From positions 660 through 64,659 of the forward strand of contig JAQVYB010000004.1 of the NCBI GenBank assembly GCA_028708815.1: 64,000 nt of DNA, written 5' to 3'. The position numbers and the translations under genes were made by a program. Within the stretch, counting starts at the first letter, position 1. Each line of letters starts with the position of its first letter. A model generated the notes under the pieces. That model did not search any database and was not told where the DNA came from. It worked only from the letters and a program-made list of their open reading frames with translations. Positions 9,312 through 59,649 of this stretch are shown here, in pieces. Source of the stretch: Kiritimatiellia bacterium (GTDB lineage Bacteria; Verrucomicrobiota; Kiritimatiellia; RZYC01).

Positions 9312-10178
9312 ATGAGAGCATCCAGCATCAAAGACTACCAGGAACGCATCAACCGCGTGTGCCTCTTCATCCAGGAGCATTTGGCCGAACCCATGAGGCT
9401 GGCGGACCTCGCGGCCTGCGCGTGTTTTTCCCCCTTCCACTTCCACCGCATTTTCCTGGCTCACACCGGCGAAACGCTCAACGCACATATACGCCGCCTA
9501 CGCCTCGAACGCGCCGCCCAGCACCTCCTTCACTCCTCCAACGCCATCACCGATATCGCCCTCGACGCCGGCTACGAAACACCCTCCGCCTTCAACAAAG
9601 CCTTCGCCCAGCACTTCAATTGCACCCCCTCCCATTTCCGGAAAGCAAAAAACAACCACCTGTTGCTGCAGCAGCGGATGGTCATTGTTCAAACCAGAAA
9701 GGAAATAAAACCCATGAAACCAGAACTGAAAACAACCGAGCCGACCCAGGTGCTCTATGTGAGAAAAACCGGGAAATACAGCGACAGCGCCATGCAGGCC
9801 TGGCAGGCCCTTTGTGCATTTGCCGGGCCTAAAGGACTCCTCGGCCCCGGCGTGGACTGCATCGGTATCTCCCACGACGACCCCTGCATAACCCCTGAAG
9901 ACAAACTGCGCTACGACGCCTGCATCACAATGAAAGCCGAGGTGCAACCCGAGGGGGAAGCCGGCGTTCAAACCATACCGGGCGGACGCTATGCTATCTT
10001 CATGCATAAGGGCTCCTACGATACATTGCTCGAGACCTACGGGTTCATCTTCGGCCAATGGCTGCCCGAGTCCGGCGAAAAACTGCGGGACTTCCCCTCC
10101 TTCGAGAAGTATCTGAACGACCCGCATTCCACACCCCCCGAGCAGTTGCTCACGGAAATTCACGTGCCCCTGCAATAG
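9312..10178 (+). CDS. AraC-family transcriptional regulator with C-terminal GyrI-like effector-binding domain
   Basis: AraC HTH region (RLADLAACACFSPFHFHRIF...ITDIALDAGYETPSAFNKAF) followed by a GyrI-like domain; start moved to ATG 9312 (RBS GGAG), since the ORF-track start at 9093 overlaps the dipeptidase gene. Confidence 0.8.
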   Translation: MRASSIKDYQERINRVCLFIQEHLAEPMRLADLAACACFSPFHFHRIFLAHTGETLNAHIRRLRLERAAQHLLHSSNAITDIALDAGYETPSAFNKAFAQHFNCTPSHFRKAKNNHLLLQQRMVIVQTRKEIKPMKPELKTTEPTQVLYVRKTGKYSDSAMQAWQALCAFAGPKGLLGPGVDCIGISHDDPCITPEDKLRYDACITMKAEVQPEGEAGVQTIPGGRYAIFMHKGSYDTLLETYGFIFGQWLPESGEKLRDFPSFEKYLNDPHSTPPEQLLTEIHVPLQ

Positions 10179-25132: not shown

Positions 25133-25277
25133 TTTTCCAATCATTGGAAACTTTTCACACCGTTTTTCCAATCATTGGAAACTTTTTCAGCGATTTTTCC
25201 AATCATTGGAAACTTTTCACACCGTTTTTCCAATCATTGGAAACTTTTTCAGCGATTTTTCCAATCATTGGAAACTG
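25133..25277. repeat. Tandem array of 5 copies of a 31-bp unit containing the inverted repeat TTCCAATCATTGGAA
   Basis: Core 15-mer at 25135, 25166, 25197, 25228 and 25259 (exact 31-bp phasing); alternate 31-bp units differ, giving a 62-bp dimer repeated 2.5x; sits between convergent genes. Confidence 0.9.
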
Positions 25278-29921: not shown

Positions 29922-31535
29922 CTACGGATCCAGATTGGCGCCGTAGGATCCGGTCACAAAAGGCCCCTCCGGCTGGCCGCTGTCCAACTCATAATTTCCG
30001 GCCGCACCGCTGATCGGCGCAACGGCTCCGGGACCCACAAGATGGCCATCCACATGCCGATCGGGGAAATCGGCGGTAGTGAAAGATTCACCCCGACTGT
30101 TCAGCATGATATCGGTAGGCGTACCCGACAACCGCTGATCGGCATCCAGCGTGCCGTGCAACACGTTGAAATAAAGGGTATCAGCGGAGGCGGTGTCGGT
30201 ATCGTACAGGCTGAAACTGGCGTTCCAGTCAACTGGAGAGGGACCCCCGATCTGGATATCCATGGTGCAGTAACCGCGCAGATAATGGGTGCTGTCTTCC
30301 CGGATAACCAAGGCGCCACTGCTGCCGCTGCCGCTCAGATTGTAGGCCACGGTACCGGCGGCAATCGCGGCCACGCTTTCGGGCGTGAGGGCCTGCCCGG
30401 CGGAATAGGTGCCGGCAATCTTGTCGTCCTGCGGGTTGATCCAAACCCCCCAGGACCAGTTATTGCCGCTATCCTCCTCGTGCTTCACATAAGGGATTGG
30501 CGTGGGTGTGGGAAGCGGAGTGGGTCGAGGCGTCGGATCGGGATCGGGTGTCGGATCGGGAGGAGTCGGAAAGGGCTCGGGTGTCGGATCGGGATCGGGA
30601 TCGGGTTCGGGTTCGGGTTCGGGCATTTCCACTTTGTCGGACTGCGGAACAATGTCGTCATTAAAGAAATCGACATCATTCCGCAACGGGTCATCCGCGA
30701 ACGGCAATAAGGAGGAATCCTGGCGCGAGTCGTCGCCGCCATCCGCTCCGCCCGAAAACTCACTGGGGCCTCCGCCAGGCCCTTCTTCCGCACCACCATC
30801 GGACCCGCCATCGTCTGCTCCGCCATCGGCTTCCGCACCACCGGCGTCGGCTCCTGATGAGGCCGGCGCGCCGACTTCATTCAGGATGCCCCTGATTTCT
30901 TCCAAGGAGAACAAACGCTCTTCCATCCGCCCGCCAACATCCACCGTGACCAGCGTTCCGGGCTCCACGATGTTTAACACACGCGAACCCTCATCGCCGA
31001 TCACCACCCCTTCCACTGGACCGTTCGCTTGAATATGTATCGTTCTCCCTGACGAAATTTCGACAATGTAAAATTTGTCACTTCGTCCTCCGAGGAGAAA
31101 CAGCACCTCACACCCACGGATGCCAATCACCGCCTTGCCGGTTTCCACCCTGAATCCCTCCTGATTCAACTCCACGATTTTTCCGGTTACGGCGCGGAAC
31201 ACGCCTTTGATCAATTTGAAAAAAGCCTTATTGTCGGACTTGTTCGACGGGTTATAGATGTAGTCATCCACCACCATCTCGCTGCGTTCGCCCTGTACAA
31301 TGACCGAATCGTCATCGAACATAATCTGGGCCTTTGCGCCCGGACCCGTCACGATACGATCATAGGAATACACCGGCGATTGCAGCGAAAGAGCCCGCTG
31401 AATACCATCCTGCGAAACCGCATGCACGCCGCCTTCCAGCGCAACCACCAGCCCTATCGGATCCTCGGCACGCGCCCCCGCGCAAAAATACGCCACACTC
31501 AGCAACAATCCTGCCAACCAACTCACCTTTTTCAT
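29922..31535 (-). CDS. Secreted FecR-domain protein with Pro/Asp/Thr-rich linker
   Basis: Signal peptide; FecR-like N-terminal domain ([25 protein letters not shown]); [17 protein letters not shown] linker; immediately upstream of the CHASE2 kinase, as often seen for FecR/CHASE2 pairs. Confidence 0.7.
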
Positions 31536-33052: not shown

Positions 33053-33140
33053 TTCCAATCGTTGGAAACTTTTTTCCGCGTTTTTCCAATCGTTGGAAAA
33101 AGGGCAAGAGGATCGGCACGACCCTTTCCAATCATTGGAA
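33053..33140. repeat. Three copies of the TTCCAATC(A/G)TTGGAA inverted-repeat element (spacing 31 and 42 bp)
   Basis: Cores at 33053, 33084 and 33126; same motif as the arrays at 25.1 kb and 49.7 kb. Confidence 0.85.
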
Positions 33141-33147
33141 AAAGCAG

Positions 33148-33178
33148 AAAGCCCGTGCGGACGCACGGGCTTTCTTTT
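33148..33178 (-). terminator. Strong hairpin terminator (12-bp stem AAAGCCCGTGCG/CGCACGGGCTTT) downstream of the M20 hydrolase gene
   Basis: Perfect 12-bp stem with 2-nt loop flanked by A-run and T-run (potentially bidirectional). Confidence 0.65.
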
Positions 33179-34830: not shown

Positions 34831-34947
34831 GGACCTCTGCCTGCCGGGACGAAACAACATCCGCCCCAAAAGGCCCTATATCTAGGCATCGACATCCTGA
34901 AATGCAATCTCTTTGTAGCACTTTCGCAGCCGGCGGAAATAGACCTG

Positions 34948-34976
34948 TTGACAGATCGCGTGTTAAGAACTATGAT
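34948..34976 (+). promoter_or_regulatory. Sigma-70-type promoter TTGACA-17 bp-TATGAT for FG-GAP gene copy A
   Basis: Near-consensus -35 and -10 hexamers with 17-bp spacer; same architecture conserved upstream of the paralogue at 38469-38497. Confidence 0.55.
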
Positions 34977-35048
34977 CCGATTATCATTGGTGCCAAGTGT
35001 AATATCCATGGGGGGGTTGCAGGAAGGGTGCCGCAAAGGAGGTTATTT

Positions 35049-38000
35049 ATGCGCTCAATTCACGTCCTTTTCATTGCTGTTGCTTTCACCCTGTTTCTAT
35101 TCACCCCAATCGCTCCGGCCGTCACACCGCTTTCCGATCCGGCGGCACTGACGGCCAATCTGTATACCAACCCCGCTCCGACCGTGAATGCCCGGCTCGG
35201 TTCCGCTGCAGCTGTTCACGGCAATTACCTGCTGATGGGTGCGCACAGGCACAACAACGACAAAGGGGCATGCCATCTGTACAACAAGACCCCGGACAAC
35301 CGTTGGGAACTGGAAGAAACAAAAACGTTTTCCCTGGGTTCCGCACAATTCGGCGGTTCGGTGGCCATTAACGATACTTATTTTTTTGTAGGCGGGATGT
35401 ATTATGATAACGGGGCCTACTCAGATGCCGGCGCCGTGGCAATGTATGGCAAGAACGCCCTCGGGAACTGGAAGAGTCTTGGGATGCTGTATCCAGGGGA
35501 CCTCTCCGCTCAAGCCTATTTCGGCAACAGCCTTGCCCTGCATGAACACTATCTGGCGGTCGGCTCATTCGGACATAACGGCAAACGCGGGGCCGTATAT
35601 ATTTTCACCAATTCCGCCGGAACCTGGACGCAAACAGCCCGCCTGGCCCCCGGCGACCTGGCCGCCAACAACTGGTTCGGGGACGCCCTGGCCATGAATA
35701 ATCAGTACCTTGCAATAGGTGCTCCCTATCAAAGTGCCAACGGCATAGCCTCCTCAGGAGCCGTATACCTTTACAAGAACATCAACGGCACCTGGACCTA
35801 TCAGAAAAAACTGACCGGCGGAAATATGGCCAACGCTTACTTCGGCTCATCCGTGGCCCTTTCAGACAAATTCCTGTTGATCGGCTCTCCATATGAACCC
35901 ATCGACGGAATCAACCCCGGTGCGGTGTATGTATATGACCTCAGCCAAAGTTCCACGCCGGTGAAATGCCTGCTCACAGCCATCACCCCTCAGGATGACG
36001 CGGCCTTCGGCAGCGCCGTGGCTCTGGATGGAAATGCCGCCATTGTCGGCGCGCCTCTTTATGACGACGACGCCACGACACATGCCGGACTGGTAACCTT
36101 GTACCAATATGACGAATCCGCCGGTTCATGGTACACCATTCGCGATCTTCCCACCCAATCCCTGAGCGCAGAAGATCGTTTCGGCGATCATCTAGCCATG
36201 TACCGCAACACCCTCGTCTGCACGGCCCCCTATGCCGACCAGGACGTTCTATCCAATGCCGGAAACTTCTACGTCTACGATCTCAACCAGACTTGGTTTA
36301 GCGAAGGCAAAGCCGCAGGCGACCAGTCGGGCTCCCGCGTAGGACTCAACGGCACCCGCCTCGCCGCTTCCGCACCCTATCGAAACGCAAACGGCCTCAA
36401 CAGCTCAGGTGCCGTGGATATCTTCCGCAAACATGGACGCGATTGGACCCTCGAACAAACGCTGACCGAGCCCGTAGGCTCGCGGGCGGCCAACAACTAC
36501 TTCGGCTACGGAATGGCCCTCGGGCGTAACGCATTGATCGCCGCCGCCGACTTGGGCGACTATGGTTATTCAAACAACGGGAAAATCTACATCTATGAAC
36601 GCTCCGGCAACACTTGGAATGCGGTCTATTCACGCACGGGACAAGGCGATAATTGGAAGTACGGTAACAACGTCGCCATGGGCGAAACACACGCCGCCGC
36701 CACCCGCTACAATTCCGGAAATCTGGCCACCTACATCGACACCTTCACACGTGCGGGAAATGGCACCTGGTCGCTGGACCCCACCTCCGTCTCCCCCAAA
36801 TTCGGGTCAGGCGACATTGACTTCGGATGCGACATCGCCATCGATGGCGACTGGATGCTTGTCGGTTCAAGCGCCTATGACTCCGACAGAGGCGGCATCC
36901 ACCTCTACCAATGGGATGGCAATCGGTGGGTTGGGAAGTATGGAGCACTCGGGCTTCCCGGGTCCCTCTTTGGTGCCGGCGTGGACGTCTGCGGCAATCT
37001 CTTTGCGGCAGGACGCCCCGGCGTTGATGAGCAACGCGGTAGCGTTAGGCTTTACGGCGTCAATGGAGATTCCTTCGTCTATTACGCCACACTAACCGCA
37101 CCCGACGGCGTCGCCGGCGACCGCTTCGGCTGGTCCGTCGCCTTTGCCAAACAGGGGAACACCCTTCTCGTCAGTGCCTACAAAAAACACCTCGGTTCCC
37201 TAAGCGATGTGGGCGCAATATACGTCTACCGAAAGGGTGCCAATAACTCCAACTGGACCTATGACGGCATCATCTATCCACCTGATAACGGGTCCCTTTC
37301 AGCATCTGACTACTTTGGAAAAGATATCGCCGCCGCAGGCAACTCGCTCGTCGCCGGACTCTACAGCTACGACGGCGAAGCCGGCAATAGCGCCGGCGCC
37401 GTGGCCCAAATTCAGATCACCCCCTTCACCACCCCAGCCGATTTTGATGGCGATGGCATCACCGATTTCGGATGCTACCACCCCCCCTCCGGCGGGTGGT
37501 ATGTCTACAAAAGCCGCGAGGGATACTGGGAAAACCATTTCGGCTACGAAGGAACCCTCCCCTTTGTGATGGACTGCGACGGCGACTGGAAGGTCGACTT
37601 CGGATGCTACCACTCCGCCTCCGCAAACTGGTACGGCTACGGCACCGTCAAAAAATTCTGGACCTCTGCTTTCGGAAACCCCAACACCCAATCCATCACC
37701 GGTGACTTCGATGGCGACGGCGTGGTTGACCTGGGATTCTTTGATTCCTCCATTCCCAAGTTCTACTTTATGTGTTCCACGCGGGGCTACAGAGACGACC
37801 AATTCGGTTTGACCGACACCGTGCCCATCACCGGCGATTTCGATGGCGACGGAATCGACGACTACGGCACGTACTACGACGTGACCGGCGCCTGGAACAT
37901 CCGCCGAAGCCGCGACGGCGACTGGGCCAACAACTTCGGCTACGAAGGCACCCTCCCCGTCACCGGCGATTTCGATGGCGACAACATCATGGACTTCGGA

Positions 38001-38231
38001 TGCTACCATCCCCCCAGCGGCGGATGGTATATCTATAAAAGCACCGACGGCTACTGGGAAAACTACTTCGGATTCGAAGGCACTCTCCCCGTCACCGGCG
38101 ATTTCGATGGCGATGGAATCGAAGACTTCGGATGCTACCATCCGCCGACGGGCGCCTGGTACGTCTACAAAAGCAACGAAGGATTCTGGGAAAACTACTT
38201 CGGTTACGAAGGCACGATCCCGATGAATTGA
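35049..38231 (+). CDS. Secreted FG-GAP repeat beta-propeller protein with C-terminal Trp-rich DFDGDG repeats (paralogue A)
   Basis: Signal peptide MRSIHVLFIAVAFTLFLFTPIAPA; ~14 FG-GAP-like repeats (FGGSVAI.., FGNSLAL.., FGDALAM..); 8 C-terminal ~40-aa repeats (GDFDGDGITDFGCYHPPSGGWYVYKS); RBS AAAGGAGG. Confidence 0.8.
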   Translation: MRSIHVLFIAVAFTLFLFTPIAPAVTPLSDPAALTANLYTNPAPTVNARLGSAAAVHGNYLLMGAHRHNNDKGACHLYNKTPDNRWELEETKTFSLGSAQFGGSVAINDTYFFVGGMYYDNGAYSDAGAVAMYGKNALGNWKSLGMLYPGDLSAQAYFGNSLALHEHYLAVGSFGHNGKRGAVYIFTNSAGTWTQTARLAPGDLAANNWFGDALAMNNQYLAIGAPYQSANGIASSGAVYLYKNINGTWTYQKKLTGGNMANAYFGSSVALSDKFLLIGSPYEPIDGINPGAVYVYDLSQSSTPVKCLLTAITPQDDAAFGSAVALDGNAAIVGAPLYDDDATTHAGLVTLYQYDESAGSWYTIRDLPTQSLSAEDRFGDHLAMYRNTLVCTAPYADQDVLSNAGNFYVYDLNQTWFSEGKAAGDQSGSRVGLNGTRLAASAPYRNANGLNSSGAVDIFRKHGRDWTLEQTLTEPVGSRAANNYFGYGMALGRNALIAAADLGDYGYSNNGKIYIYERSGNTWNAVYSRTGQGDNWKYGNNVAMGETHAAATRYNSGNLATYIDTFTRAGNGTWSLDPTSVSPKFGSGDIDFGCDIAIDGDWMLVGSSAYDSDRGGIHLYQWDGNRWVGKYGALGLPGSLFGAGVDVCGNLFAAGRPGVDEQRGSVRLYGVNGDSFVYYATLTAPDGVAGDRFGWSVAFAKQGNTLLVSAYKKHLGSLSDVGAIYVYRKGANNSNWTYDGIIYPPDNGSLSASDYFGKDIAAAGNSLVAGLYSYDGEAGNSAGAVAQIQITPFTTPADFDGDGITDFGCYHPPSGGWYVYKSREGYWENHFGYEGTLPFVMDCDGDWKVDFGCYHSASANWYGYGTVKKFWTSAFGNPNTQSITGDFDGDGVVDLGFFDSSIPKFYFMCSTRGYRDDQFGLTDTVPITGDFDGDGIDDYGTYYDVTGAWNIRRSRDGDWANNFGYEGTLPVTGDFDGDNIMDFGCYHPPSGGWYIYKSTDGYWENYFGFEGTLPVTGDFDGDGIEDFGCYHPPTGAWYVYKSNEGFWENYFGYEGTIPMN

Positions 38232-38571: not shown

Positions 38572-41500
38572 ATGCGCTCAATTCACGTCCTTTTCATTGC
38601 TGTTGCTTTCACCCTGTTTCTATTCACCCCAATCGCTCCGGCCGTCACACCGCTTTCCGATCCGGCGGCACTGACGAGCATCCTCTACGAAAACCCGGCA
38701 GCCATTGCCAACGATTATTTCGGATACGGCCTGGCCATTGACGGAAATTACCTGCTGGCGGGCGTTCCGGGAAGATCAACATACAAAGGAGGCTACAACC
38801 TCTACGGAAAGACGCCGGACAACCAATGGGAACTACTGCGTACGCACACCTACAGTCAAAACGGCGCCGGGTTCGGCGGGGCCGTGGCCATCAATGAAAA
38901 CAACCTTCTGGTCACCGCCGATCGATACGATCACGAAGGCTATACCGATGCCGGAGGCGTATCCGTCGAAACAAAAAGTGCGATGGGCTTATGGGAGGAA
39001 CAACCCATGCTCGTCGCAAGCGACCCACGCAACAATGCACGCTTCGGCGCGGCGCTCTGTCTGCATGAATCGCTTTTGGCGGTCGGCGCGAATGAGTATA
39101 ACAATGGCCGAGGAGCGGCCTATCTCTTCACCAACACCAACGGAGCCTGGACCCAGATAGACCGCATCGTCCCCAACGACCTAAGCGAAAACGATAAGTT
39201 CGGCTCGGCCCTGGCCGTGAATAATCAGTTTCTGGCCATCGGCGCCCCACAACAGGATCTCAACGCAATCGCCGATTCAGGAGCCGTATATCTCTATGAA
39301 AACAACAACGGAACCTGGACCTATTGGAAAAAGCTGGACGGCGGAAACGCCGCCGGGGCGAAATTCGGCTCGGCCATCGCCCTCTCCGGAAACGTCCTGA
39401 TGATCGGCGCACCCTCCGCGCCCATTGGCGGCGTCGCCGTCGGTTTGGTCTATGTGTACGATCTCGGCCAAGACAGCACACCGATCTCCCACGTGCTCGC
39501 CGGCGCCAACCCACAACTCAACGCATCCTTTGGCTCCACAGTGGCGCTGGACGGGAATCTGGCCGTTGTGGGCGCCCGATTCTACGATGGCGATGCCAAC
39601 AGCTCCGGACGGGCCACGCTGTATCAGTATGATAAAACAAGAAACATCTGGTATGCGATCCGCGAACTGCCCACCCAAACCCTGAACGCAAGCGACCGCT
39701 TCGGCACGTCCATTGCCGTCTACCGAAACCAAATAGCCTGCGCCGCACCATTCGCCCTCCAGGGCGCGGCGACAAGCTGCGGAAACTTCTATGTCTACGA
39801 CCTCAATCAAACCTGGTTTCGTGCCGGGCAAACCGCGGAGGACTACTACGGCCACCGCGTCGGACTGAATGGAACCCGCCTGGCCGCCTCCGCTCCCTAT
39901 CGAGACGCGAACGGCATCAACAACTCCGGGTCCGTGGAACTCTTCCGCAAGCGTGGGCGCGACTGGACGCTCGAACAAAACCTGACCGAAGACGCCTCCT
40001 CGCGCGCGGCAAACAACCGGTTCGGCTACGGGATGGCCCTCGGGCGCAACACACTGATCGTCTCCGCCCCCGGGGGTGACTATGATTATGTCAACAACGG
40101 GAAAATATACATCTATAAACGCACGGGGAACGCCTGGAATGCAGTCTATTCACGTACGGGGCAAGGCGACAACTGGCAGTACGGAACCACTGTCGCGCTG
40201 AACGACTCCCACGCCGCCGCCACCCGCTACAACCCCGGCAACGGAGCCACCTACATCGACACCTTCACTCGCGCGGGAAACGGCACTTGGTCCAAGGATG
40301 CCTTTTCCGTGTCGCCGTACTTCGGCGCGGACGCGGGCGCCATAGGCTTCGGCTGCGACATTGCCATCGACGGAAACTTCATGGTGGTAGGTTCGAGCAG
40401 CTACCTCCTCAATCAGGGAGGCTTCCATATCTACAAATGGCAGACCGACCGCTGGCGCGGTGTTGCCGGAACATACAGCATGATTGCAGACGATTTGACG
40501 GGCACCAGTGTGGACCTTTGCGGAAACCTCATTGCGGCAGGCTCCCCCGGTCGAAGCAGCAGCCAGGGAATCGTCAAGCTCTACGGCCTCGGTGATGAGA
40601 CCCTCCTGTTTTACGCCACTCTATCCGCACCCGACGCAAAAGACGGTGACCGCTTCGGCTACTCCGTCGCCTTTGCCAACCAGGGAAACACCCTCCTGGT
40701 CGGCGCCTACAAAAAACACATGGGCGACCTGCAGGATGTCGGCGCCGTATACGTCTACCGAAAGGGCGCCAACAATTCCACCTGGACCTATGACGGAACC
40801 ATCTATCCGCCCGACAACGGATCCCTCACTCACCTCGACTACTTCGGCAAGGACATCGCCGCATTCGGCAACTCCGTGGCCGCCGGACTCTACGGCTTCA
40901 ACAGCGAAGACGACGGTGACCGTGCCGGCGCCGTGGCCCAAATTCAAATCACCCCCTTCACCGCACCCGCCGATTTCGATGGCGACGGCATTACCGACTT
41001 CGGATGCTACCATCCCCCATCCGGCGGATGGTACGTATACAAAAGCCGCGAGGGATACTGGGAAAACCATTTCGGCTATGAAGGAACCCTCCCCTTTGTG
41101 ATGGACTGCGACGGCGACTGGAAGGTCGACTTCGGATGCTACCACTCCGCCTCCGCAAACTGGTACGGCTACGGCACCGTAAAGAAATTCTGGACCTCTG
41201 CTTTCGGAAACCCCAACACCCAATCCATCACCGGTGACTTCGATGGCGACGGCGTGGTTGACCTGGGATTCTTTGATTCCTCCATTCCCAAGTTCTACTT
41301 TATGTGTTCCACGCGGGGCTATACAGACGACCAATTCGGCTTTACTGATACCGTACCCATCTCCGGCGATTTCGATGGCGACGGAATCGACGACTACGGC
41401 ACCTACTACGACGTGACCGGCGCCTGGAACATCCGCCGAAGCCGCGACGGCGACTGGGCCAACAACTTCGGCTACGAAGGCACTCTCCCCGTCACCGGCG

Positions 41501-41763
41501 ATTTCGATGGCGACGGAATCATGGACTTCGGATGCTACCATCCCCCCAGCGGCGGATGGTATATCTATAAAAGCACCGACGGCTACTGGGAAAACCACTT
41601 CGGATTCGAAGGCACTCTCCCCGTCACCGGCGATTTCGATGGCGACGGAATCGAAGACTTCGGATGCTACCATCCGCCGACGGGCGCCTGGTACGTCTAC
41701 AAAAGCAACGAAGGATTCTGGGAAAACTACTTCGGTTACGAAGGCACCATCCCGCTGAATTGA
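38572..41763 (+). CDS. Secreted FG-GAP repeat beta-propeller protein with C-terminal Trp-rich DFDGDG repeats (paralogue B)
   Basis: Identical signal peptide to copy A; diverged FG-GAP propeller half; C-terminal ~350 aa nearly identical to copy A. Confidence 0.8.
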   Translation: MRSIHVLFIAVAFTLFLFTPIAPAVTPLSDPAALTSILYENPAAIANDYFGYGLAIDGNYLLAGVPGRSTYKGGYNLYGKTPDNQWELLRTHTYSQNGAGFGGAVAINENNLLVTADRYDHEGYTDAGGVSVETKSAMGLWEEQPMLVASDPRNNARFGAALCLHESLLAVGANEYNNGRGAAYLFTNTNGAWTQIDRIVPNDLSENDKFGSALAVNNQFLAIGAPQQDLNAIADSGAVYLYENNNGTWTYWKKLDGGNAAGAKFGSAIALSGNVLMIGAPSAPIGGVAVGLVYVYDLGQDSTPISHVLAGANPQLNASFGSTVALDGNLAVVGARFYDGDANSSGRATLYQYDKTRNIWYAIRELPTQTLNASDRFGTSIAVYRNQIACAAPFALQGAATSCGNFYVYDLNQTWFRAGQTAEDYYGHRVGLNGTRLAASAPYRDANGINNSGSVELFRKRGRDWTLEQNLTEDASSRAANNRFGYGMALGRNTLIVSAPGGDYDYVNNGKIYIYKRTGNAWNAVYSRTGQGDNWQYGTTVALNDSHAAATRYNPGNGATYIDTFTRAGNGTWSKDAFSVSPYFGADAGAIGFGCDIAIDGNFMVVGSSSYLLNQGGFHIYKWQTDRWRGVAGTYSMIADDLTGTSVDLCGNLIAAGSPGRSSSQGIVKLYGLGDETLLFYATLSAPDAKDGDRFGYSVAFANQGNTLLVGAYKKHMGDLQDVGAVYVYRKGANNSTWTYDGTIYPPDNGSLTHLDYFGKDIAAFGNSVAAGLYGFNSEDDGDRAGAVAQIQITPFTAPADFDGDGITDFGCYHPPSGGWYVYKSREGYWENHFGYEGTLPFVMDCDGDWKVDFGCYHSASANWYGYGTVKKFWTSAFGNPNTQSITGDFDGDGVVDLGFFDSSIPKFYFMCSTRGYTDDQFGFTDTVPISGDFDGDGIDDYGTYYDVTGAWNIRRSRDGDWANNFGYEGTLPVTGDFDGDGIMDFGCYHPPSGGWYIYKSTDGYWENHFGFEGTLPVTGDFDGDGIEDFGCYHPPTGAWYVYKSNEGFWENYFGYEGTIPLN

Positions 41764-46915: not shown

Positions 46916-47656
46916 CTACTCCGCCGGGGCGTTCTTGCTCTTGAGTACGCGTGCAGGCACGCCGGCGGCCAGCGAATAATCACCCACATTCTTATGCACC
47001 AGCGCACAGGCCGCAATCACGCAACGCCGGCCGATCGTCACCCCGTCGAGCACGGTCACACGCGCTCCGAGCCAGCAATCCTCTCCGATGCGGGTGGGGC
47101 CCTTCGTACACATGCCCGACTGCTCCGCATAGGGCGTCGGATCCGTCTGATCATACTCACCCCCACTCAGAAAATAGGAGTAAGCACCGATCATGGTGCC
47201 CGCGCCGATCGAGAGATCCCGACACGAAAATATCTGGCAATTCGAGGAGAGATTGACCTTCTGCTCCAGGGTGATATTCCCCCCCTTGCAATACACAATG
47301 GAATTGCGCCCGATATACACGTGATCGCCCAGCACAATGCCTTCATTACCATCGCCCTTGGCATCGATCACGGCATTGTCATCGATGATGACATGGTCCC
47401 CGATCCGGATTTTGTGCGGATGCCGAATGGTGACATCCCGTCCGAAAACCACCTTTTTTCCAATGGTTGGAAAGATCAGCGGATAGAACATCGAACGCAG
47501 ACCGAGACCGAGCAACCCCGGAATCCAGCCAAAGAGCGTGATGACCGCCTCGGCAAGCAAAACACGCCCGAGCGATAACTCCCCATACATCATCGCCCGA
47601 TACTTCGAAAAGGCATTCTTTTTGGCAATGGATTTTACCTTGTAGTCTATGGTCAT
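46916..47656 (-). CDS. Hexapeptide-repeat (left-handed beta-helix) acyl/acetyltransferase
   Basis: Repeating [LIV]-G-x4 hexapeptides (IGDHVIIDDNAVID, IVLGDHVYIGRNSIV, IGAGTMIGA, LGARVTVLDGVTIG); start at ATG 47656; 2-nt gap to the rSAM start. Confidence 0.75.
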   Translation of the reverse strand: MTIDYKVKSIAKKNAFSKYRAMMYGELSLGRVLLAEAVITLFGWIPGLLGLGLRSMFYPLIFPTIGKKVVFGRDVTIRHPHKIRIGDHVIIDDNAVIDAKGDGNEGIVLGDHVYIGRNSIVYCKGGNITLEQKVNLSSNCQIFSCRDLSIGAGTMIGAYSYFLSGGEYDQTDPTPYAEQSGMCTKGPTRIGEDCWLGARVTVLDGVTIGRRCVIAACALVHKNVGDYSLAAGVPARVLKSKNAPAE

Positions 47657-47715
47657 ATGGTCCCCGTCCCTGTTTACTCTTTTTGCGCGGGCCAAGCCCG
47701 CAATCAGCACACGCC

Positions 47716-49590
47716 TTACGATTGCTCCAGAAACCGTCGGTGCCAGATGGCGGTGTGAATCAGCCCCCACAGCACATGGTTGTGATTATGCTTCATGGCG
47801 AGATGCTCGTCAATCAGTTGATTCACATAGGGCAGGTTCATGTTCTCACGAATGACGGGCGACTCATTGAGCAGACTGATCATAAAACCCTTGAGTTGGG
47901 TGCGCAGGAAATTTTTGACCGGCAGGCTGTAGCCCTGTTTTCCCCGGTAAATAATCGAATTCGGGAGCATGCCTTCGAGCGCCTTGCGGAAGATATACTT
48001 CGTCTGCATACCCTTGAGCTTCCAGTCACCCGGCAGGAGCGCGAGATATTCGAGCAGACGATGATCCAGCAGCGGCACCCGTATCTCAAGGGAATTGGCC
48101 ATGCTCATGCGGTCCACCTTCATCAGCACGCTGTCGGTCATCTGATAGCGCGTATCCAGATACGCCTCCCGATTCACCCGGTCGCGGGTGCGACATTTGA
48201 GATCATACTCATGCAGCCGCGCAAAACCATCCAGATTCACGTCGCCGCGAAACGACTCATTGAAGAGCGCCGCATCCTGCCGCGCGTTCGAAAAATACTG
48301 CCAACGAAGGTGCCGTCCCTCTTCGGGCAGACAGGATCCCTCGATGAACCGCTTCAGCATGTTGATGGCGCCCTTCTTCTGCGGCTGATCCGGAAGCAGC
48401 CCGACCAACCCCGAAATCACCGGCTGACGCAGCGGTCTCGGCAGCAGGCTGTACCAACTGTTCATCTTACTGGCCTTGAAACGGTCGTAGCCCACGAACA
48501 CCTCGTCGCCGCCCTCCCCGCTCAGACACACCGTAATATCCTTCTTCGCCTCCTGACAAATCAGCATCAGCGGAATCGAGGAAAGGTCCGTCATGGGTTC
48601 ATCAAAGTGCCAAAGCGATTTTTCGATCAGCTCCTCGGTCATCTCATCAATCATCAGCACATGATGTTCGGTTCCGAACTGATCGGCAACGATCTGCGCA
48701 TATTCCAACTCGCTGAACGTCTTGTCTTGGTAACCAATGGTAAAGGTACGCAGCGGCCCGGTCACATGACGGCGCATCATGGCCACAATGGTGCTGGAGT
48801 CCAGCCCGCCGGAAAGAAAGGCGCCCAACGGCACATCGGAGACCAACTGACTGCGCACCGCATCATCCAGCAGCCCGCGAATCCGCTCAATCGCCTCTCC
48901 CTCGGTAATATCCCGCGACGGCTCTTCCGGAAATTCCAGATCCCAATACTCCCGAATTTCCGTCTTGCCGCCGCGACGGATCAGATAGTGCCCCGCCGGA
49001 AGCTTCATAATATGCCGAAACATCGTTTCCGGCGCCGGCACAAATTCGCACCCAATGTAGGCAAAGAGCGCCTGCCGGTTCAGCTCGCGCGGCACGCACG
49101 GCGCCTCCAGCATGGCCTTGATTTCCGAGCCGAACACAAACCGCCCATCCCGCTCATAATAATAAACCGGCTTCACCCCGATATGATCACGCGCCATCAG
49201 AAAAGTCCCGCTCCGCGCATCCCAAATCGCAAACGCAAAAATGCCGCGCAGCTTCGGAATAATTTCTTCGCCGTATTCCTCATAGCCATGCACAATCACT
49301 TCGGTATCGCTGTGGCTGGCGAACACATGCCCCTTGCCAACCAGCTCCTCGCGCAGCTCCTGAAAATTATAGATCTCCCCGTTGAAGACAATCTGCACCG
49401 AGCCATCCTCATTGCCCATGGGTTGGCGCCCGTGTTCGCTCAGGTCAATGATGCTGAGCCGACGATGCGCAAAACTCCAATCCCCGCAGGCAAACACGCC
49501 CTCCTGATCCGGCCCCCGGTGCGCAATCGTCAACGCCATCCGACGCGCCAGTTCCGCATCATTCCAATTAAACCCGCAAATCCCGCACAT
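47716..49590 (-). CDS. asnB: Asparagine synthase (glutamine-hydrolysing) family amidotransferase
   Basis: N-terminal Ntn Cys (MCGICGF), glutaminase domain, PP-loop SGGLDSS in synthetase domain; 624 aa. Confidence 0.9.
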   Translation of the reverse strand: MCGICGFNWNDAELARRMALTIAHRGPDQEGVFACGDWSFAHRRLSIIDLSEHGRQPMGNEDGSVQIVFNGEIYNFQELREELVGKGHVFASHSDTEVIVHGYEEYGEEIIPKLRGIFAFAIWDARSGTFLMARDHIGVKPVYYYERDGRFVFGSEIKAMLEAPCVPRELNRQALFAYIGCEFVPAPETMFRHIMKLPAGHYLIRRGGKTEIREYWDLEFPEEPSRDITEGEAIERIRGLLDDAVRSQLVSDVPLGAFLSGGLDSSTIVAMMRRHVTGPLRTFTIGYQDKTFSELEYAQIVADQFGTEHHVLMIDEMTEELIEKSLWHFDEPMTDLSSIPLMLICQEAKKDITVCLSGEGGDEVFVGYDRFKASKMNSWYSLLPRPLRQPVISGLVGLLPDQPQKKGAINMLKRFIEGSCLPEEGRHLRWQYFSNARQDAALFNESFRGDVNLDGFARLHEYDLKCRTRDRVNREAYLDTRYQMTDSVLMKVDRMSMANSLEIRVPLLDHRLLEYLALLPGDWKLKGMQTKYIFRKALEGMLPNSIIYRGKQGYSLPVKNFLRTQLKGFMISLLNESPVIRENMNLPYVNQLIDEHLAMKHNHNHVLWGLIHTAIWHRRFLEQS

Positions 49591-49665
49591 AACCCATTCC
49601 CATCCTTTTTACTCAGCCCGACGAATTCCAACATTTCCAAGCAGTGGAAAGGTATTTCCCAGTTT

Positions 49666-49774
49666 TTCCAATCATTGGAAAGTTTTTTCCCGGTTTTTCC
49701 AATCATTGGAAACTTTTTTCCCGGGTTTTCCAATCATTGGAAACTTTTTGTTTCGTAATTTCCACGGATTGGAA
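49666..49774. repeat. Three to four copies of the TTCCAATCATTGGAA inverted-repeat element at 31-bp phasing
   Basis: Cores at 49666, 49697 and 49728 (31-bp spacing) plus a degenerate copy TTCCACGGATTGGAA at 49760 and half-site remnants at 49626-49650; located in the divergent asnB / STAS-gene intergenic region. Confidence 0.85.
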
Positions 49775-49806: not shown

Positions 49807-50130
49807 GTGAAGCTCGACCTGGTACATAAGAACAGCGGCGTAATTCTGCGTGTGGACGGTGCGCTGGACCATGCCACCGCACAGAAATTCGCCAAGAAAT
49901 GCTACGAGCTGCTCTCCCTGAATGCCGCCAAAATCGCCATTGATTTGCGCAAGGCTGATTTTGTGGGCAGCGCGAGCGTCTGCACGATTGTGGCGGTCGG
50001 GAAAAAAATTCAGGCCCGCCAGGGGGAATATTATCTCTCCCTCAGCAGTCCGGCGGAACAGGCCTTGGAATTCAGCGGTTTTAAATCCGTCTTTTCCATT
50101 GTGGACGATCCGGAGGCCGTCATTGATTAA
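49807..50130 (+). CDS. STAS-domain anti-sigma-factor antagonist (RsbV/SpoIIAA-like)
   Basis: STAS fold with conserved phosphorylatable Ser context (DFVGSASVCTIV); GTG start. Confidence 0.8.
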   Translation: MKLDLVHKNSGVILRVDGALDHATAQKFAKKCYELLSLNAAKIAIDLRKADFVGSASVCTIVAVGKKIQARQGEYYLSLSSPAEQALEFSGFKSVFSIVDDPEAVID

Positions 50131-50551
50131 CCGGCTGAATGAGTTCAACTTCATACCGATTCCAGCGGATGAAAAAGCCCTGGAAACCGCACGCCAATTC
50201 GTGCTCGAACAGGCCGAGCGCCTGAACCTGCCCGCGCCCATCATTTTCAAAATCGAACTGGCTCTGGAGGAAATTCTCGTCAATGTGGTTCATTATGCCT
50301 ATCCGCCCGGAACAACCGGCGTGGTGGATGTCGGCTGCCTGACGGATGAAGCCGGCATCTCCCTGTGTATTGCCGACAGCGGTCGCCCCTTCAACCCTCT
50401 CGAAAAGGAAAAACCCGATTTGGACATCGAACTCGAAGAGCGGCAAATCGGCGGGTTGGGCATTTTTCTGACACGCGAGATGGTGGATGCCATCGAGTAC
50501 CGCCGGGAGCAGGACCGCAACATCATCACCTTCACCATCCGCAAACCCTAG
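50123..50551 (+). CDS. Anti-sigma regulatory factor Ser/Thr kinase (RsbW/SpoIIAB-like GHKL ATPase)
   Basis: HATPase_c N-box (ELALEEILVNVVHYAY) and G-boxes (DSGRPFNP, GGLGIFL); likely TTG start at 50123 overlapping the STAS stop by 8 nt, RBS CGGAGG. Confidence 0.7.
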   Translation: MINRLNEFNFIPIPADEKALETARQFVLEQAERLNLPAPIIFKIELALEEILVNVVHYAYPPGTTGVVDVGCLTDEAGISLCIADSGRPFNPLEKEKPDLDIELEERQIGGLGIFLTREMVDAIEYRREQDRNIITFTIRKP

Positions 50552-50675
50552 CAATCCGGTGGTCGTTCGGTGTTTTCATACACGACCACACAGCTCTGCG
50601 CTAATGACTTCGACCTGCTCCAACCCGTGATAGCGTCCGTTTAAAAAAACGCCGGGGACACGAACCCGCCTGAAC

Positions 50676-51857
50676 TCACACAAACCGAATACGCATCATC
50701 GAGAAATCGTCCTCCAGATATTCCGCCGCGTGCATGGCAAACACATGCCGATGCAACTCGTCAATCACGCCGGCTTGTTCGCCGAGTGCCGCGCAGCGTT
50801 CGATCAGAAATTCGGTCAGTCCCTCCAGCGACCACATGGTTCCATCGCTCATGGAAACCTCGTAGACGCCATCCGAAAAGACAAACAACGACGCACCCTT
50901 CGGCACGGGGGTCTCCGCCGTGACATACACCATGTCAGGCATGCCGCCCACGATCATGCCGGGCGTCTTCAACTCCTCCGCCTTCCCTTCTGAAATCAGC
51001 AGAGAGGGCGGATGCCCGCCCGATGAATAACGCAGCACTGCCGTTTTCACGTCATACACCCCATACCACATGGTGAAATACAAATCGTTGTTCTTTTCCA
51101 TCTGAAAGGTGTCATTCATCGCAACCAGCACCGCCGACGGATCCAGAAAATCCACCTGCGGCAGACTTTGCGACCGCAGCACATTGATCGCGGAAACAGA
51201 AAGCAGCGCCGGCCCGACCCCATGATCGCACACATCGAGCAAATAAATCGCCAGATGGTCGGCATCCACCCAGTGATAGCCGAATGAATCCCCACCCAGA
51301 CGCGCCGACGGGATATACGTCCATTCCGTCCGCAATCCCTTTTCATCCATGGGCGCAGGCAGGATCGACATAACGTAATCCGCCGCAATCGCCAATTCCT
51401 CCGCCAGCTTTTCCTGGCTTGCCTTTAAGGCATCATAGGCCTCATTGCGCTCCAACAGATTGATATAGCCCTTGGAGTGATAACGTATGCGTGCCACCAG
51501 CTCGAGGCGGTCGGGCAGCTTCACCAGATAATCGTTCGCGCCCGCCGCAAAGGCATCCGCCTTTGTCTTCGGCTCCTCCTTGGTTGAAAGCACAATCAGC
51601 GGAACTTCCTTCAGCGCAGAATGACCCCGGAAAAAGCGTACCAAGGTCATCCCGTCAATCTCCGGCATCACCAAATCCTGCAGGATAACCGTTGGATTGA
51701 ATTCGGCGGCCAGGGTGAGCGCCTGCGCGGGATCCTGACAATGAATAAACTGAATATCCTGCTCCGGGGCCAGCATGCGCCGCACCTGCTCGCCGACAAT
51801 CGCCTGATCATCCACCAGAAATACCCGGATATCGTGATGCTGCAATTCGTTGATCAT
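50676..51857 (-). CDS. Response-regulator receiver fused to PP2C-type (SpoIIE/RsbU-like) phosphatase
   Basis: REC domain (VFLVDDQ...VILQDLVMPEIDG...K) followed by a PP2C/SpoIIE domain with metal-binding Asp residues (GGDSFGY, DVCDHGVG, FVFSDGVYE). Confidence 0.85.
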   Translation of the reverse strand: MINELQHHDIRVFLVDDQAIVGEQVRRMLAPEQDIQFIHCQDPAQALTLAAEFNPTVILQDLVMPEIDGMTLVRFFRGHSALKEVPLIVLSTKEEPKTKADAFAAGANDYLVKLPDRLELVARIRYHSKGYINLLERNEAYDALKASQEKLAEELAIAADYVMSILPAPMDEKGLRTEWTYIPSARLGGDSFGYHWVDADHLAIYLLDVCDHGVGPALLSVSAINVLRSQSLPQVDFLDPSAVLVAMNDTFQMEKNNDLYFTMWYGVYDVKTAVLRYSSGGHPPSLLISEGKAEELKTPGMIVGGMPDMVYVTAETPVPKGASLFVFSDGVYEVSMSDGTMWSLEGLTEFLIERCAALGEQAGVIDELHRHVFAMHAAEYLEDDFSMMRIRFV

Positions 51858-51982
51858 GGTTATTTATCCTCTGCTTTACGCGAACAATAACAAAAAACAT
51901 CCCCCGGACGAACTGTTTTTTTTTGACGCCGCGCCCAATTCTTCCCATGCTCCCATGCAACATCACAGGAAAACAACGGAAC

Positions 51983-52702
51983 ATGACCAACCTCACGCCT
52001 CATCCTCAACCACGCGCCCAGGGAAACGACCGTCAGATCCGTCTCGATCTCGACCGCCTGCAACGTCAGGGCTTTCCCGAGACCGTCTTCTGCCCCGGAA
52101 AAACCACCGAACAACTGCGCGAAATCTTCCGCACAATGACCCAGGCCCGGCAGAACGTCATGGCCACCCGCGCCACACCGGACCTCCATGCCGAATTGGT
52201 CCGTTTCTTCCCCGAGGCCGTCTACCATACCGATGCACACCTCATCACGCTGGACGTGGTTCCCCTTCCCGAACCGCGCGGGCAAATCAGCATCATCTGC
52301 GCAGGCACCGCCGATGTGCCCGTGGCCGAAGAGGCCCGCATCACCGCGATGCGCTTTGGTGCGAAAACCCACACCATCTATGATGCCGGCGTGGCCGGAC
52401 TGCACCGTCTGACCTCGGCCATCGACGAAACAGCCTCCTCCAATGCCGTCATCGTGGTCGCCGGCATGGAGGGCGCCCTCCCCTCCGTGGTGGGCGGGCT
52501 GATTGATCTACCTCTCATCGCCGTGCCCACCAGCGTGGGATACGGCTGGAACCTGGAAGGTCTCTCCGCGCTGCTGGCCATGCTGAATTCCTGCGCCGCA
52601 GGCGTAACCGTGGTGAACGTGGATAACGGCTACGGCGCAGGCGTAGCCGCCGCACGAATCAACCGTCGGGTAACCACTTCCACCAAATCCCCCGCAGCCT
52701 GA
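51983..52702 (+). CDS. larB: LarB-like PurE-family protein (nickel-pincer cofactor biosynthesis, P2CMN synthase homologue)
   Basis: LarB-specific N-terminal region (RLDLDRLQRQGFPETVFCPGKT) plus PurE-like C-terminal domain (ICAGTADVPVAEEA, VVAGMEGALPSVVGG); start at ATG 51983. Confidence 0.65.
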   Translation: MTNLTPHPQPRAQGNDRQIRLDLDRLQRQGFPETVFCPGKTTEQLREIFRTMTQARQNVMATRATPDLHAELVRFFPEAVYHTDAHLITLDVVPLPEPRGQISIICAGTADVPVAEEARITAMRFGAKTHTIYDAGVAGLHRLTSAIDETASSNAVIVVAGMEGALPSVVGGLIDLPLIAVPTSVGYGWNLEGLSALLAMLNSCAAGVTVVNVDNGYGAGVAAARINRRVTTSTKSPAA

Positions 52703-52779
52703 GAATCCGATTGCTTCATACAAACGCCTCGCCTCTGGTCTTCCGGCATTTTAAACAGACCATCAGCCGTCATTCCGGC

Positions 52780-54291: not shown

Positions 54292-54445
54292 GGTCTCTTA
54301 CCTCCTTTGACGACATTAAATCACTCACGATGTGACGTATGGATCGAACCACTCTGAATTGACCCATTTGACCGTTACTTTTGTCAAGGTAAAAGACCTC
54401 GACCATTAAAGCATCGTTGGTCTCACCGCCCTTTATTCTCTCAAA

Positions 54446-57453: not shown

Positions 57454-57460
57454 AAACGGC

Positions 57461-57844
57461 CTACGCTTCCTCATCCATTACCAGATGAAATGGAAAAGAG
57501 ACGCCATCGGCCAGCTCCTTTCCGCTTTCGAGCAGATCCTCATCGCCCTCGGCATAATGCCACCAAAGCATGACCGAAGCACCCTGGCGGGCGTACTCAT
57601 CCAACCGTTCCACCACATCCAGCAGACACTTGGACGAGCTTGAATTAAAATACGAGAGCGACACCTCCACCTTCAGCGGACGATGCCTGCCATCCATATA
57701 TTCATCCAACCACTGAAACACCGGACGGAAAAATTCCACCGCATTTTCCGGATAACATTCTCCGGTCAACCGCATGGCGCCGCTGTCTGCGCTCAGCAGA
57801 ACGCCGGGAGTGGATACACCGGATTCCAGATTCAGCTCATTCAT
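57461..57844 (-). CDS. DUF1987 / SiaC-like partner-switching phosphoprotein
   Basis: Pattern ECYPENAVEFF...LSYFNSSSSKCLLDVVERL...WWHY...FPF closely resembles the SiaC family; ATG 57844 with GGGAG RBS (ORF-track start 57862 is TTG). Confidence 0.75.
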   Translation of the reverse strand: MNELNLESGVSTPGVLLSADSGAMRLTGECYPENAVEFFRPVFQWLDEYMDGRHRPLKVEVSLSYFNSSSSKCLLDVVERLDEYARQGASVMLWWHYAEGDEDLLESGKELADGVSFPFHLVMDEEA

Positions 57845-58391: not shown

Positions 58392-58531
58392 AAACTACTC
58401 CTGGGTTGGAGGGCCGATGAGAAGAGTACCCCGCCCACGCAAAGGTGGCAATGCCGGAATGGGAAATCTTCCCTCCCGAACAACCCGCCGGAGAGTCTTC
58501 GCGCACTACTGATATGCACCGAATATGATGT

Positions 58532-59299: not shown

Positions 59300-59649
59300 C
59301 GCGTTCCTTTCCCGTTTTCCAACGATCCGGCCATCTGCCGAACATTGGATACAGCCACAACCGATTGAGGCGATCCGCAATAACGGCCGGGCCGCAACCA
59401 ACTTCAAATGAAACCACGCAATAGTATACCGTCCGCCCCGCCCAACGAAAAGAGAGATTCCCTCTGAATATTCCGATCCACACGTCCCGCTGTAATGCCT
59501 TTCCTGCCGGCGGAAAACACCCATACCACCCTCACCGCAACCGCCGAAGGCCCGTATTTCTACCGCGTTCTCGTAGAATAATTTCATTTTTTACAAGCCT
59601 TGCCCACCCCTGATACGATAGGCTTCCACCGAGTCTAGGGGTGAAAAGC

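Follow-up and report, generated by a model that had tools for sequence, protein, structure and literature searches.

A 64,000-nucleotide stretch of DNA from a Kiritimatiellia bacterium (assembly GCA_028708815.1, contig JAQVYB010000004.1, positions 660 to 64,659; hereafter the window) carried 14 copies of the dyad TTCCA-N5-TGGAA, mostly in the form TTTCCAAT-S-ATTGGAAA. Three intergenic arrays of five, three and five sites and one intragenic site accounted for all of them. We propose, with a probability of about one half, that these repeats are recognition sites of a sequence-specific dimeric DNA-binding protein, helically phased for cooperative binding. We infer binding, cooperativity and the role of the resulting complex from the motif itself, its over-representation and distribution, the quantized spacing of its copies, and its lack of association with particular genes or with the direction of transcription. 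Both half-sites were exact in 14 of 14 copies, whereas 100 dinucleotide-preserving shuffles averaged 0.05 copies per window and never held more than one, and no further site appeared in the window when up to three mismatches were allowed.

Site architecture and helical spacing

The site was a 5-5-5 dyad in which the half-sites TTCCA and TGGAA enclosed an AT-rich center, ATSAT. A position matrix confined the information to positions -8 to +8, extending the dyad to the TTTCCAAT-S-ATTGGAAA form, and the central base was C or G in 429 of 440 sites. At array edges and within genes the central 5 bp varied and both half-sites were kept, the pattern predicted for a pair of recognition helices that contact the outer major grooves.

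Sites were located independently in all loci compared, yielding 185 spacings between neighboring sites from 26 genomes. Three helical turns predominated (30 to 33 bp, 156/185), with fewer spacings of two turns (20 to 23 bp, 20/185), four turns (41 to 43 bp, 5/185) and six turns (62 to 64 bp, 3/185). The two-, three- and four-turn classes together held 181 of the 185; a single spacing of 59 bp was off phase, and none fell at 24 to 29 or 34 to 40 bp. Each lineage had a preferred period, which was 32 bp in CAIVKH01, 31 bp in the window, RZZM01 and CAZBEO01, and 22 bp alternating with 30 or 31 bp in metagenome-assembled genomes (MAGs) from the rumen. In CAIVKH01, 57 of 65 spacings were exactly 32 bp, corresponding to a spacer of 17 nt whose middle 9 nt were near random (identity 0.54 versus 0.45 in shuffled sequence); spacer length is held and spacer sequence is free. 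Deviations of ±1 and ±10 bp are tolerated and nothing between, which points to a constraint on double-stranded DNA under which the sites have to face the same side of the helix. The spacings are not all independent because of tandem duplication, yet 26 of 26 genomes conformed. An earlier note on the window, based on the letters of the sequence, had read the palindromes as all facing the same side of the duplex, the geometry expected of a cooperatively binding dimeric protein, and this view was strongly reinforced by the recurrence of two-, three- and four-turn spacing in 26 genomes despite differing spacers.

Arrays in the window

Array 1 (25135 to 25273) comprised five perfect copies of TTCCAATCATTGGAA, at 25135, 25166, 25197, 25228 and 25259, with a period of exactly 31 bp. 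Two spacers, ACTTTTCACACCGTTT and ACTTTTTCAGCGATTT, alternated along it, and for that reason Tandem Repeats Finder called the repeat as a 62-bp dimer (2.5 copies, 97% match); the recounted sites and the program thus agreed on the phased, dimeric array of five that the earlier note had described. Its report of three sites at 33.05 to 33.14 kb, separated by 31 and 42 bp, was also borne out. These sites form array 2 (33053 to 33140), in which the copies at 33053 and 33084 were TTCCAATCGTTGGAA, a variant with CG at the center, and the copy at 33126 was TTCCAATCATTGGAA. Array 3 (49635 to 49774) had sites at 49635, 49666, 49697, 49728 and 49760, spaced by 31, 31, 31 and 32 bp. A phased array of three to four copies had been claimed here (49.67 to 49.77 kb); the phasing stood, and the count had to be raised to five by the inclusion of two edge sites, 49635 (TTCCAAGCAGTGGAA) and 49760 (TTCCACGGATTGGAA), in which the half-sites were kept and the center was degenerate. 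The sites at 49666, 49697 and 49728 were perfect. Recounting, named there as able to reveal irregular spacing, gave only spacings of 31, 32 or 42 bp across the three arrays.

The isolated site, TTCCAATGGTTGGAA (47458 to 47472), was the sole coding copy in the window and lay within an open reading frame (ORF) for a hexapeptide-repeat transferase (46916 to 47770, minus strand), where it was read as FPTIGK. Elsewhere the stop-free repeats yielded a spurious ORF with the peptides FQSLETF, FPIIGNF and FSNHWKLF, so the FPIIGNF-type reading frames that had been attributed to the phasing are real in the window.

Distribution across genomes

We scanned one representative genome per species for the exact 17-mer TTTCCAATCATTGGAAA, which returned at least 117 stretches. 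Among the matches listed, about 105 stretches came from some 43 genomes of 50 to 70% G+C, and the other 12 were single matches in unrelated phyla, at chance level. The loci compared in this study were chosen for the exact 17-mer, with taxon labels as in the records; the labels of the 43 genomes were mostly Kiritimatiellae or Kiritimatiellia, Kiritimatiellales, Pontiellaceae, Pontiella, Tichowtungia, "Verrucomicrobiota" or similar. They included MAGs of rumen and sediment origin as well as isolates of Pontiellaceae, and the core spanned several orders of the class. The window's own genome was absent from the matches listed, and only the repeats aligned between the window and the matched loci. 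A search among 80 metagenome loci with relatives of the helicase encoded beside array 1, made for an orthologous array 1, returned mostly distant loci from other phyla that were non-syntenic and without the motif. The same organism as that of the window was found in assembly GCA_028681075.1 and run SRR22315502, and in a comparison of array copy number between assemblies the only two contigs recovered, both short, were identical to the window across the shared array regions.

The other genomes held 3 to 126 sites per genome sample of 10 to 190 kb, against at most 0.05 expected. Motif-rich genomes had 0.5 to 1.7 arrays per 10 kb, leaving out the array that had seeded each locus, which would amount to tens to hundreds of arrays per genome when extrapolated from the density in samples of 8 to 20 kb. 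In some genomes a large fraction of the intergenic gaps sampled held a pair of sites. Six 20-kb samples anchored instead on a conserved Lrp gene contained, respectively, one pair, one three-site array, one five-site array and, in three samples, no motif in the whole 20 kb. The family is therefore abundant where present and unevenly distributed within the class.

Array 1 had no blastn match in plasmid and phage collections, and a viral collection gave only single matches at chance level besides a handful of GC-rich contigs. Literature searches by sequence, by half-sites, and by Kiritimatiella or Pontiella combined with repeat terms found no description of the sequence or of such a repeat in Kiritimatiellota. 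We rate the motif as a lineage-specific, hyper-abundant genomic word, set apart by its long dyad and its arrays phased by whole helical turns.

Short-read MAG contigs often started or ended at or near arrays, as did the short contigs L004, L085 and L092 and a contig from the window's organism (L118; GCA_028681075.1, JAQUJH010000342.1), which began about 130 bp outside array 3. Arrays thus appear to break short-read assemblies and may be under-counted in MAGs. In practice they also create spurious ORFs (FPIIGNF, FQSLE or SNHWK), and they could mark the lineage in metagenomes.

A candidate dimeric DNA-binding protein

A dimeric protein of the helix-turn-helix type, whose dimers would interact along one face of the DNA, is the simplest model for a symmetric dyad with fixed half-sites, a permissive AT-rich center and spacing by whole turns. 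With sites two, three or four turns apart, bound dimers could touch and bind cooperatively; alternatively, about 60 to 150 bp might be wrapped into one nucleoprotein complex. The family occupied intergenic gaps of every orientation and grows through the duplication in tandem of units, 31 or 32 bp long, that are particular to each lineage. Because it was found throughout each genome and in gaps of every orientation, an architectural or global role, such as marking or insulating intergenic DNA or organizing the nucleoid, is more likely than a gene-specific one. The repeats are not an operator for asnB/rsbV.

Site clusters of the Lrp/AsnC type offer the closest documented geometry. Lrp-family proteins bind semi-palindromic sites with an AT-rich center, 13 bp long in the FL11 co-crystal, and clusters of such sites lie on one face of the helix, two or three turns apart from center to center, where binding is cooperative and wraps about 100 bp (PMC2995911). 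The word described here resembles those sites in being a dyad of 13 to 15 bp with two half-sites and an AT-rich center (TTCCA-ATSAT-TGGAA), and its arrays resemble those clusters in their one-face arrangement at two turns (20 of 185 spacings) or three (156 of 185). Natural Lrp sites are, however, degenerate and tied to promoters, whereas the copies found here were near-perfect, numerous, present in gaps of all orientations and even intragenic. The comparison that the arrays may work like an Lrp-type cluster stands; the claim that the repeat is an Lrp operator does not.

Lrp-family genes typically have autoregulatory sites of their own. The sole Lrp/AsnC gene in the compared loci (L035, 3359 to 3838, minus strand) encoded a protein of 159 amino acids and had a pair of sites about 125 bp upstream. 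Upstream of its homologues in L232, L235, L236, L237, L239 and L241 no site was found, making autoregulation negative in six of seven genomes. The 159-amino-acid protein was itself unusually conserved, with more than 120 cluster representatives among the matches listed at 73 to 100% identity, nearly all of 159 amino acids. Several of these were labeled Kiritimatiellia, and in the six homologue loci examined the gene was followed by an aminotransferase gene in an operon. Independently of whether the dyad is its target, the protein is a plausible global regulator of the class. Other long inverted repeats stood at the corresponding place upstream of the Lrp-aminotransferase operon in L232 (about 9740 to 9900), L235 (about 9820 to 9900) and L236 (about 9830 to 9930), all from motif-free genomes. 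They were composed of heptad units, CACGGAT(GAA/AGA) in L232 and L235 and CGTAATC in L236, and resemble a second, separate family of composite palindromes, absent from the window.

Several observations weigh against a dimeric binding protein as the explanation. Presence among Kiritimatiellia genomes was patchy. Near-perfect sites in very high copy are unusual for a regulator or a nucleoid protein, and high copy combined with sites in housekeeping genes is more typical of a copying or transmission bias. The constant 31- or 32-bp period within a lineage could be partly inherited through duplication of units. The one Lrp/AsnC candidate checked was neither favored nor eliminated as the binder: it lacked a consistent upstream site, and some genomes carrying it had no motif in 20 kb.

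It is conceivable, though we would put it at clearly less than even odds, that the dyad TTTCCAAT-S-ATTGGAAA is the word of an undescribed Kiritimatiellia-wide system, either a nucleoid-organizing or insulating protein or a signal for uptake or recombination of self DNA. Some lineages would then have acquired the sites by substitution within housekeeping and prophage genes, and others would have amplified them to intergenic arrays of two to seven sites. Such a word would take its place beside the uptake words and HIP1, both discussed below, and to our knowledge it would be the first of them with a long dyad and whole-turn arrays. Some of the readings considered here and below are compatible with one another: were the reader of the word an uptake receptor or a recombinase, it too would be a protein that binds the dyad.

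If a single protein reads the word, it would be a major and unstudied organizer of Kiritimatiellia chromosomes, and the quantization of spacing in whole turns makes the binding hypothesis directly testable. That some lineages carry intergenic arrays and others isolated intragenic sites also provides a natural experiment on the origin and persistence of hyper-abundant words, for which the choice between selection and molecular drive is an open question for the cyanobacterial word HIP1 and a debated one for the uptake words.

Growth of arrays and mobilized repeat families

The 62-bp dimer of array 1 points to a recent tandem duplication. Neighboring units, oriented by their central base, had the same orientation in 129 cases and were flipped in 53. 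Spacers shared a common architecture across genomes (an A/T run, a GC-rich core and a second A/T run), and spacer identity reached 0.61 inside an array and 0.60 across the arrays of a single genome, compared with 0.52 from genome to genome and 0.34 in shuffles. A directional unit consisting of the site followed by ACTTT occurred in the window, RZZM01 and CAZBEO01, and was not seen in other lineages. From the dimer, the shared orientation and the shared spacers and flank, we conclude that arrays are partly copies of lineage-specific units and not only independent sites.

Such copying is what a selfish or mobilized family would do, in which a transposase or recombinase copies units through intergenic space with little or no function for the host, in the manner of repetitive extragenic palindromic (REP) sequences and their bacterial interspersed mosaic elements (BIMEs) or of neisserial intergenic mosaic elements (NIMEs). 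We regard this as unlikely, about as unlikely as the uptake reading discussed below. The family is dispersed and high-copy (about 0.25 to 1.7 arrays per 10 kb), it grows in tandem, units carrying the same directional flank were seen again in other arrays of a genome and in genomes related to it, and its patchy presence and the coincidence of arrays with assembly breaks fit equally. REP families, however, usually differ between species or genera, whereas one 17-bp core was found here in about 43 genomes among the matches listed. The hairpin is weak and AT-rich, coding copies arose by substitution, and quantized spacing between spacers of unconstrained sequence calls for a constraint that acts on double-stranded DNA. 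A weak test of 7,084 six-frame ORFs from about 0.9 Mb of motif loci, made with an approximate query on partial genomes, turned up no IS200/RAYT-type ORF, and the lack of a match in plasmid or phage collections also counts against mobilization.

REPs, each family restricted to a species or genus and associated with RAYT transposases, are GC-rich, imperfect palindromes that form stable hairpins and alternate in orientation. REP/BIME elements have been described (PMC2817692) as high-copy extragenic palindromes that form composite arrays of regular spacing and bind proteins of the host. The family described here shares with them the dispersal of high-copy palindromes in regular arrays and the tandem amplification. 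It differs in being AT-rich and near-perfect, with a weak hairpin, whole-turn spacing and a class-wide core; it is not confined to extragenic DNA, and its units do not alternate. The alternative of a structured, REP-like family, raised in the earlier note, held only in part: dispersal and amplification fit it, and the weak hairpin, the near-perfect AT-rich repeat, its span of several orders and its intragenic copies in some lineages do not.

In NIMEs, 20-bp dRS3 dyads (ATTCCC-N8-GGGAAT), proposed as recombinase sites, flank repeat-sequence elements of 19 to 214 bp, typically about 50 to 150 (PMC1797815). Both families have short dyads whose arms are conserved and whose center varies, spacers of variable sequence, and a dynamic copy number. 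NIME spacers are without helical phasing, in contrast to the spacers of 5 to 27 bp seen here, which are of non-repetitive sequence and quantized length. The dRS3 dyads are also targets of phage integration, and no link to a recombinase or phage was seen for the present repeats.

Isolated sites within genes and a possible uptake word

Nearly all sites lay in phased intergenic arrays in the window's genome, CAIVKH01, RZZM01, CAZBEO01 and the rumen MAGs. Pontiellaceae isolates and several other Kiritimatiellales MAGs instead carried isolated sites, at about 0.4 to 0.5 per kb (up to two mismatches), against 0.05 per 40 kb expected from shuffles. About half of these were deep in housekeeping genes, including those for QueA, FolC, SbcC, GspF and a homocitrate-synthase-like protein, and they fell in each of the three reading frames, encoding FPxIGK, SNxWK or FQxLE. 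When one QueA was aligned to solved structures, the site replaced residues and none was inserted; the motif there therefore arose by substitution and not by insertion of a mobile element. The earlier note had held that finding the motif in coding sequence too would indicate compositional bias, a criterion that proved invalid, as coding copies in some lineages exceeded the composition-based expectation more than 100-fold.

Isolated coding sites suggest what is, in our opinion, the most interesting rival, namely a word for DNA uptake or recognition of self, like the uptake signal sequences (USS) of Pasteurellaceae and the DNA uptake sequences (DUS) of Neisseriaceae, for which a surface or periplasmic receptor of the transformation machinery would prefer DNA with the dyad and biased uptake with recombination (molecular drive) would spread the word, genes included. 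We think it improbable, with a chance of roughly one in six. Besides the sites in genes and their origin by substitution in QueA, a near-perfect, high-information word in very high copy fits drive better than site-by-site selection, in line with the transmission bias argued for uptake sequences, and center variants differed between lineages. USS and DUS are comparable in being lineage-specific words at roughly 0.5 to 1 per kb, with coding copies in every frame and lineage variants. The density in Pontiellaceae-type genomes, with half of the sites in genes, comes close to theirs, while the window's genome had essentially no coding copies (1 in 64 kb). Uptake does not predict the strict quantization of spacing in helical turns, and we know of no USS or DUS that is dyad-symmetric or arranged in whole-helical-turn arrays. 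Sites also occurred in phage-like contigs with terminase, portal and head genes, a point against uptake, though prophages could acquire them likewise.

Those contigs were three GC-rich IMG/VR entries with about three isolated sites each, two of which, L140 and L146, encoded phage structural proteins. L140 (sites at 7593, 8674 and 8944) encoded a terminase, a portal and a major head protein, and L146 (sites at 6165, 8818 and 10470) a major head protein; both had 56 to 57% G+C. One isolated site of the phage-like contigs was inside a head-protein gene. The word thus also accumulates in (pro)phage DNA, whose hosts are presumably Kiritimatiellia.

A near-identical palindrome, ATCCAATCATTGGAA, was present in three to four copies in four other IMG/VR contigs (L128, 2169 to 2229; L144; L145; L148) of 32 to 34% G+C, whose hosts are clearly not Kiritimatiellia. 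There the repeats were offset by about 15 to 16 and 31 bp. In L128 they lay inside a replication-initiation ORF (HTH_36, O-like and DnaD-like PHROG hits), directly upstream of a gene for a DnaB-like helicase. Iterons inside the initiator gene are a known arrangement of phage origins for winged-helix initiators, and the L128 repeats are likely the iterons of this initiator; the identity of ATCCAATCATTGGAA to the palindrome of the window may reflect chance in a seeded search. The phage repeats abut at about 15 to 16 bp and occupy one locus per genome, unlike the several arrays of the window. An iteron or centromere array would lie beside the rep or par gene of its replicon, and no such gene stood beside any of the window's three arrays. 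With this and the extrapolated tens to hundreds of arrays per genome, the operator, iteron and centromere labels suggested in the earlier note do not fit.

The word is also reminiscent of HIP1 (GCGATCGC), which is 15- to 300-fold over-represented, with no evidence of a role at the level of genes and a suggested one in nucleoid structure (PMC5861425). Both are hyper-abundant palindromes found in and between genes across a lineage of high rank. HIP1 is 8 bp long, GC-rich, overlaps orphan methyltransferase sites and forms no short-range phased arrays, in contrast to the 15 to 17 bp, AT-rich word found here. Each of REP/BIME, NIME/dRS3, USS/DUS and HIP1 has one or more defining features that the motif lacks. 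A clustered regularly interspaced short palindromic repeat (CRISPR) array, with repeats of 23 to 47 bp, unique spacers of about the same length and cas genes in the vicinity, was rejected, as the core is 15 to 17 bp, the spacers are 5 to 27 bp and partly duplicated, and the Pfam annotation of the window included no cas domain.

Gene association and polarity

Genes in the compared loci were called with our own codon-model heuristic with 5' trimming, and many apparently coding arrays proved to be ORFs over-extended through the stop-free repeats. Multi-site arrays in tandem, divergent and convergent gaps numbered 46, 11 and 12 with the first gene calls and 54, 19 and 8 with the refined ones. Within tandem gaps, arrays were no nearer to stop codons than to start codons, and unit orientation was unbiased with respect to both the upstream gene (42:41) and the downstream gene (40:46). 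Clustering of the neighboring proteins from the 43 genomes gave no recurrent family beyond generic ABC ATPases and enzymes of amino-acid biosynthesis. The earlier note had doubted that a single simple regulatory explanation would suffice, and the lack of a recurrent neighbor and of transcriptional polarity, together with arrays in convergent gaps, justified that doubt. It had also asked whether the motif marks intergenic regions generally or a specific regulon; neighbor clustering recovered no regulon, and arrays occupied gaps of every orientation.

The absence of a recurrent neighbor and of polarity argues against gene-specific operators, by which the repeats would define a regulon including asnB, the rsbV/rsbW-like operon and the Slam/FecR operon. 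Arrays 2 and 3 do lie 40 to 130 bp upstream of start codons, and with one of the two sets of gene calls divergent gaps outnumbered convergent ones (19 versus 8). Convergent 3' ends, however, flanked array 1 and eight or more other arrays, and neither the number of arrays implied per genome nor the isolated sites inside genes suits a regulon, which leaves operators very unlikely. A sigma-70-like pair was considered and rejected: at a 31-bp period, TTGGAA-17 nt-TCCAAT mimics -35 and -10 hexamers, but the promoter scan returned none, the second hexamer is without the conserved A at position 2, and spacings of 22 and 42 bp and arrays in convergent gaps would go unexplained. Simple promoter and terminator scans had no hit within arrays 1 and 3.

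A single unit formed an RNA hairpin of -4.8 kcal/mol (z about -1.3 to -2.1). An intrinsic terminator, which would have a GC-rich stem and a U-tract in the orientation of the upstream gene, was rejected, given the scans of arrays 1 and 3 and the lack of orientation bias; the terminator beside array 2 is a separate hairpin. The lack of polarity, the weak hairpin and the spacing rule argue against roles at the level of RNA, and a terminator, mRNA-stabilizing hairpin, small RNA or protein-sponge RNA is likewise very unlikely, for although units can pair within and between themselves (array 1 folds at -38.6 kcal/mol, z = -5.7) and the window's lineage has a T-run after the hairpin on one strand, that T-run is confined to one lineage, arrays also occupy divergent promoter gaps, folding leaves spacings of 22, 31 to 32 and 42 bp unexplained, and an Rfam search of the whole window returned no family above threshold.

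Gene surroundings in the window

The three arrays had the differing contexts that the earlier note described, namely convergent gene ends, the vicinity of a terminator and a divergent asnB/rsbV-rsbW-like region. Array 1 filled a 215-bp gap between the convergent 3' ends of genes for a DEAD/DbpA helicase (stop at 25079) and a response-regulator/histidine-kinase hybrid (stop at 25294). Array 2 was bounded on one side by a strong GC-rich terminator hairpin, located after an M20 peptidase gene, and on the other by the 5' end of a Slam-like TPR gene (ORF start at 32960; public gene call about 32927), beyond which came a FecR-domain gene. Array 3 was in a 217-bp divergent gap between the starts of asnB (49590, minus strand) and a STAS gene (49807, plus strand), the latter being half of a pair encoding a STAS protein and an anti-sigma kinase. 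The rest of the window was ordinary chromosomal DNA encoding signaling proteins, peptidases and FG-GAP surface proteins, and its Pfam annotation contained no rep, par, cas or transposase gene.

Abutting array 2, positions 33146 to 33176 held a perfect 13-bp GC-rich stem, AAGCCCGTGCGGACGCACGGGCTT, with U-rich sequence downstream on both strands, which suggests a bidirectional intrinsic terminator distinct from the repeat family. From the STAS gene onward, positions 49807 to 59587 formed a dense partner-switching and phosphorelay cluster comprising STAS, an anti-sigma-type kinase, a response regulator-PP2C (SpoIIE) protein, PAS-PP2C, a histidine kinase-response regulator hybrid, a SiaC-like protein, DUF6272 and a VWA protein, resembling Rsb- and Sia-type signaling modules. 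Two adjacent paralogous FG-GAP-repeat genes (34902 to 38231 and 38572 to 41763) each ended in three copies of a 132-bp coding repeat (37817 to 38215 and 41356 to 41747) and shared a 14-bp tandem duplication near the 5' end (35077 to 35106 and 38600 to 38629), which suggests that the pair arose by recent gene duplication. A degenerate tandem repeat (GGATCG, 18 bp or 33 bp) at 30527 to 30623, inside the FecR-domain gene (29922 to 31535, minus strand), presumably encodes a low-complexity protein linker.

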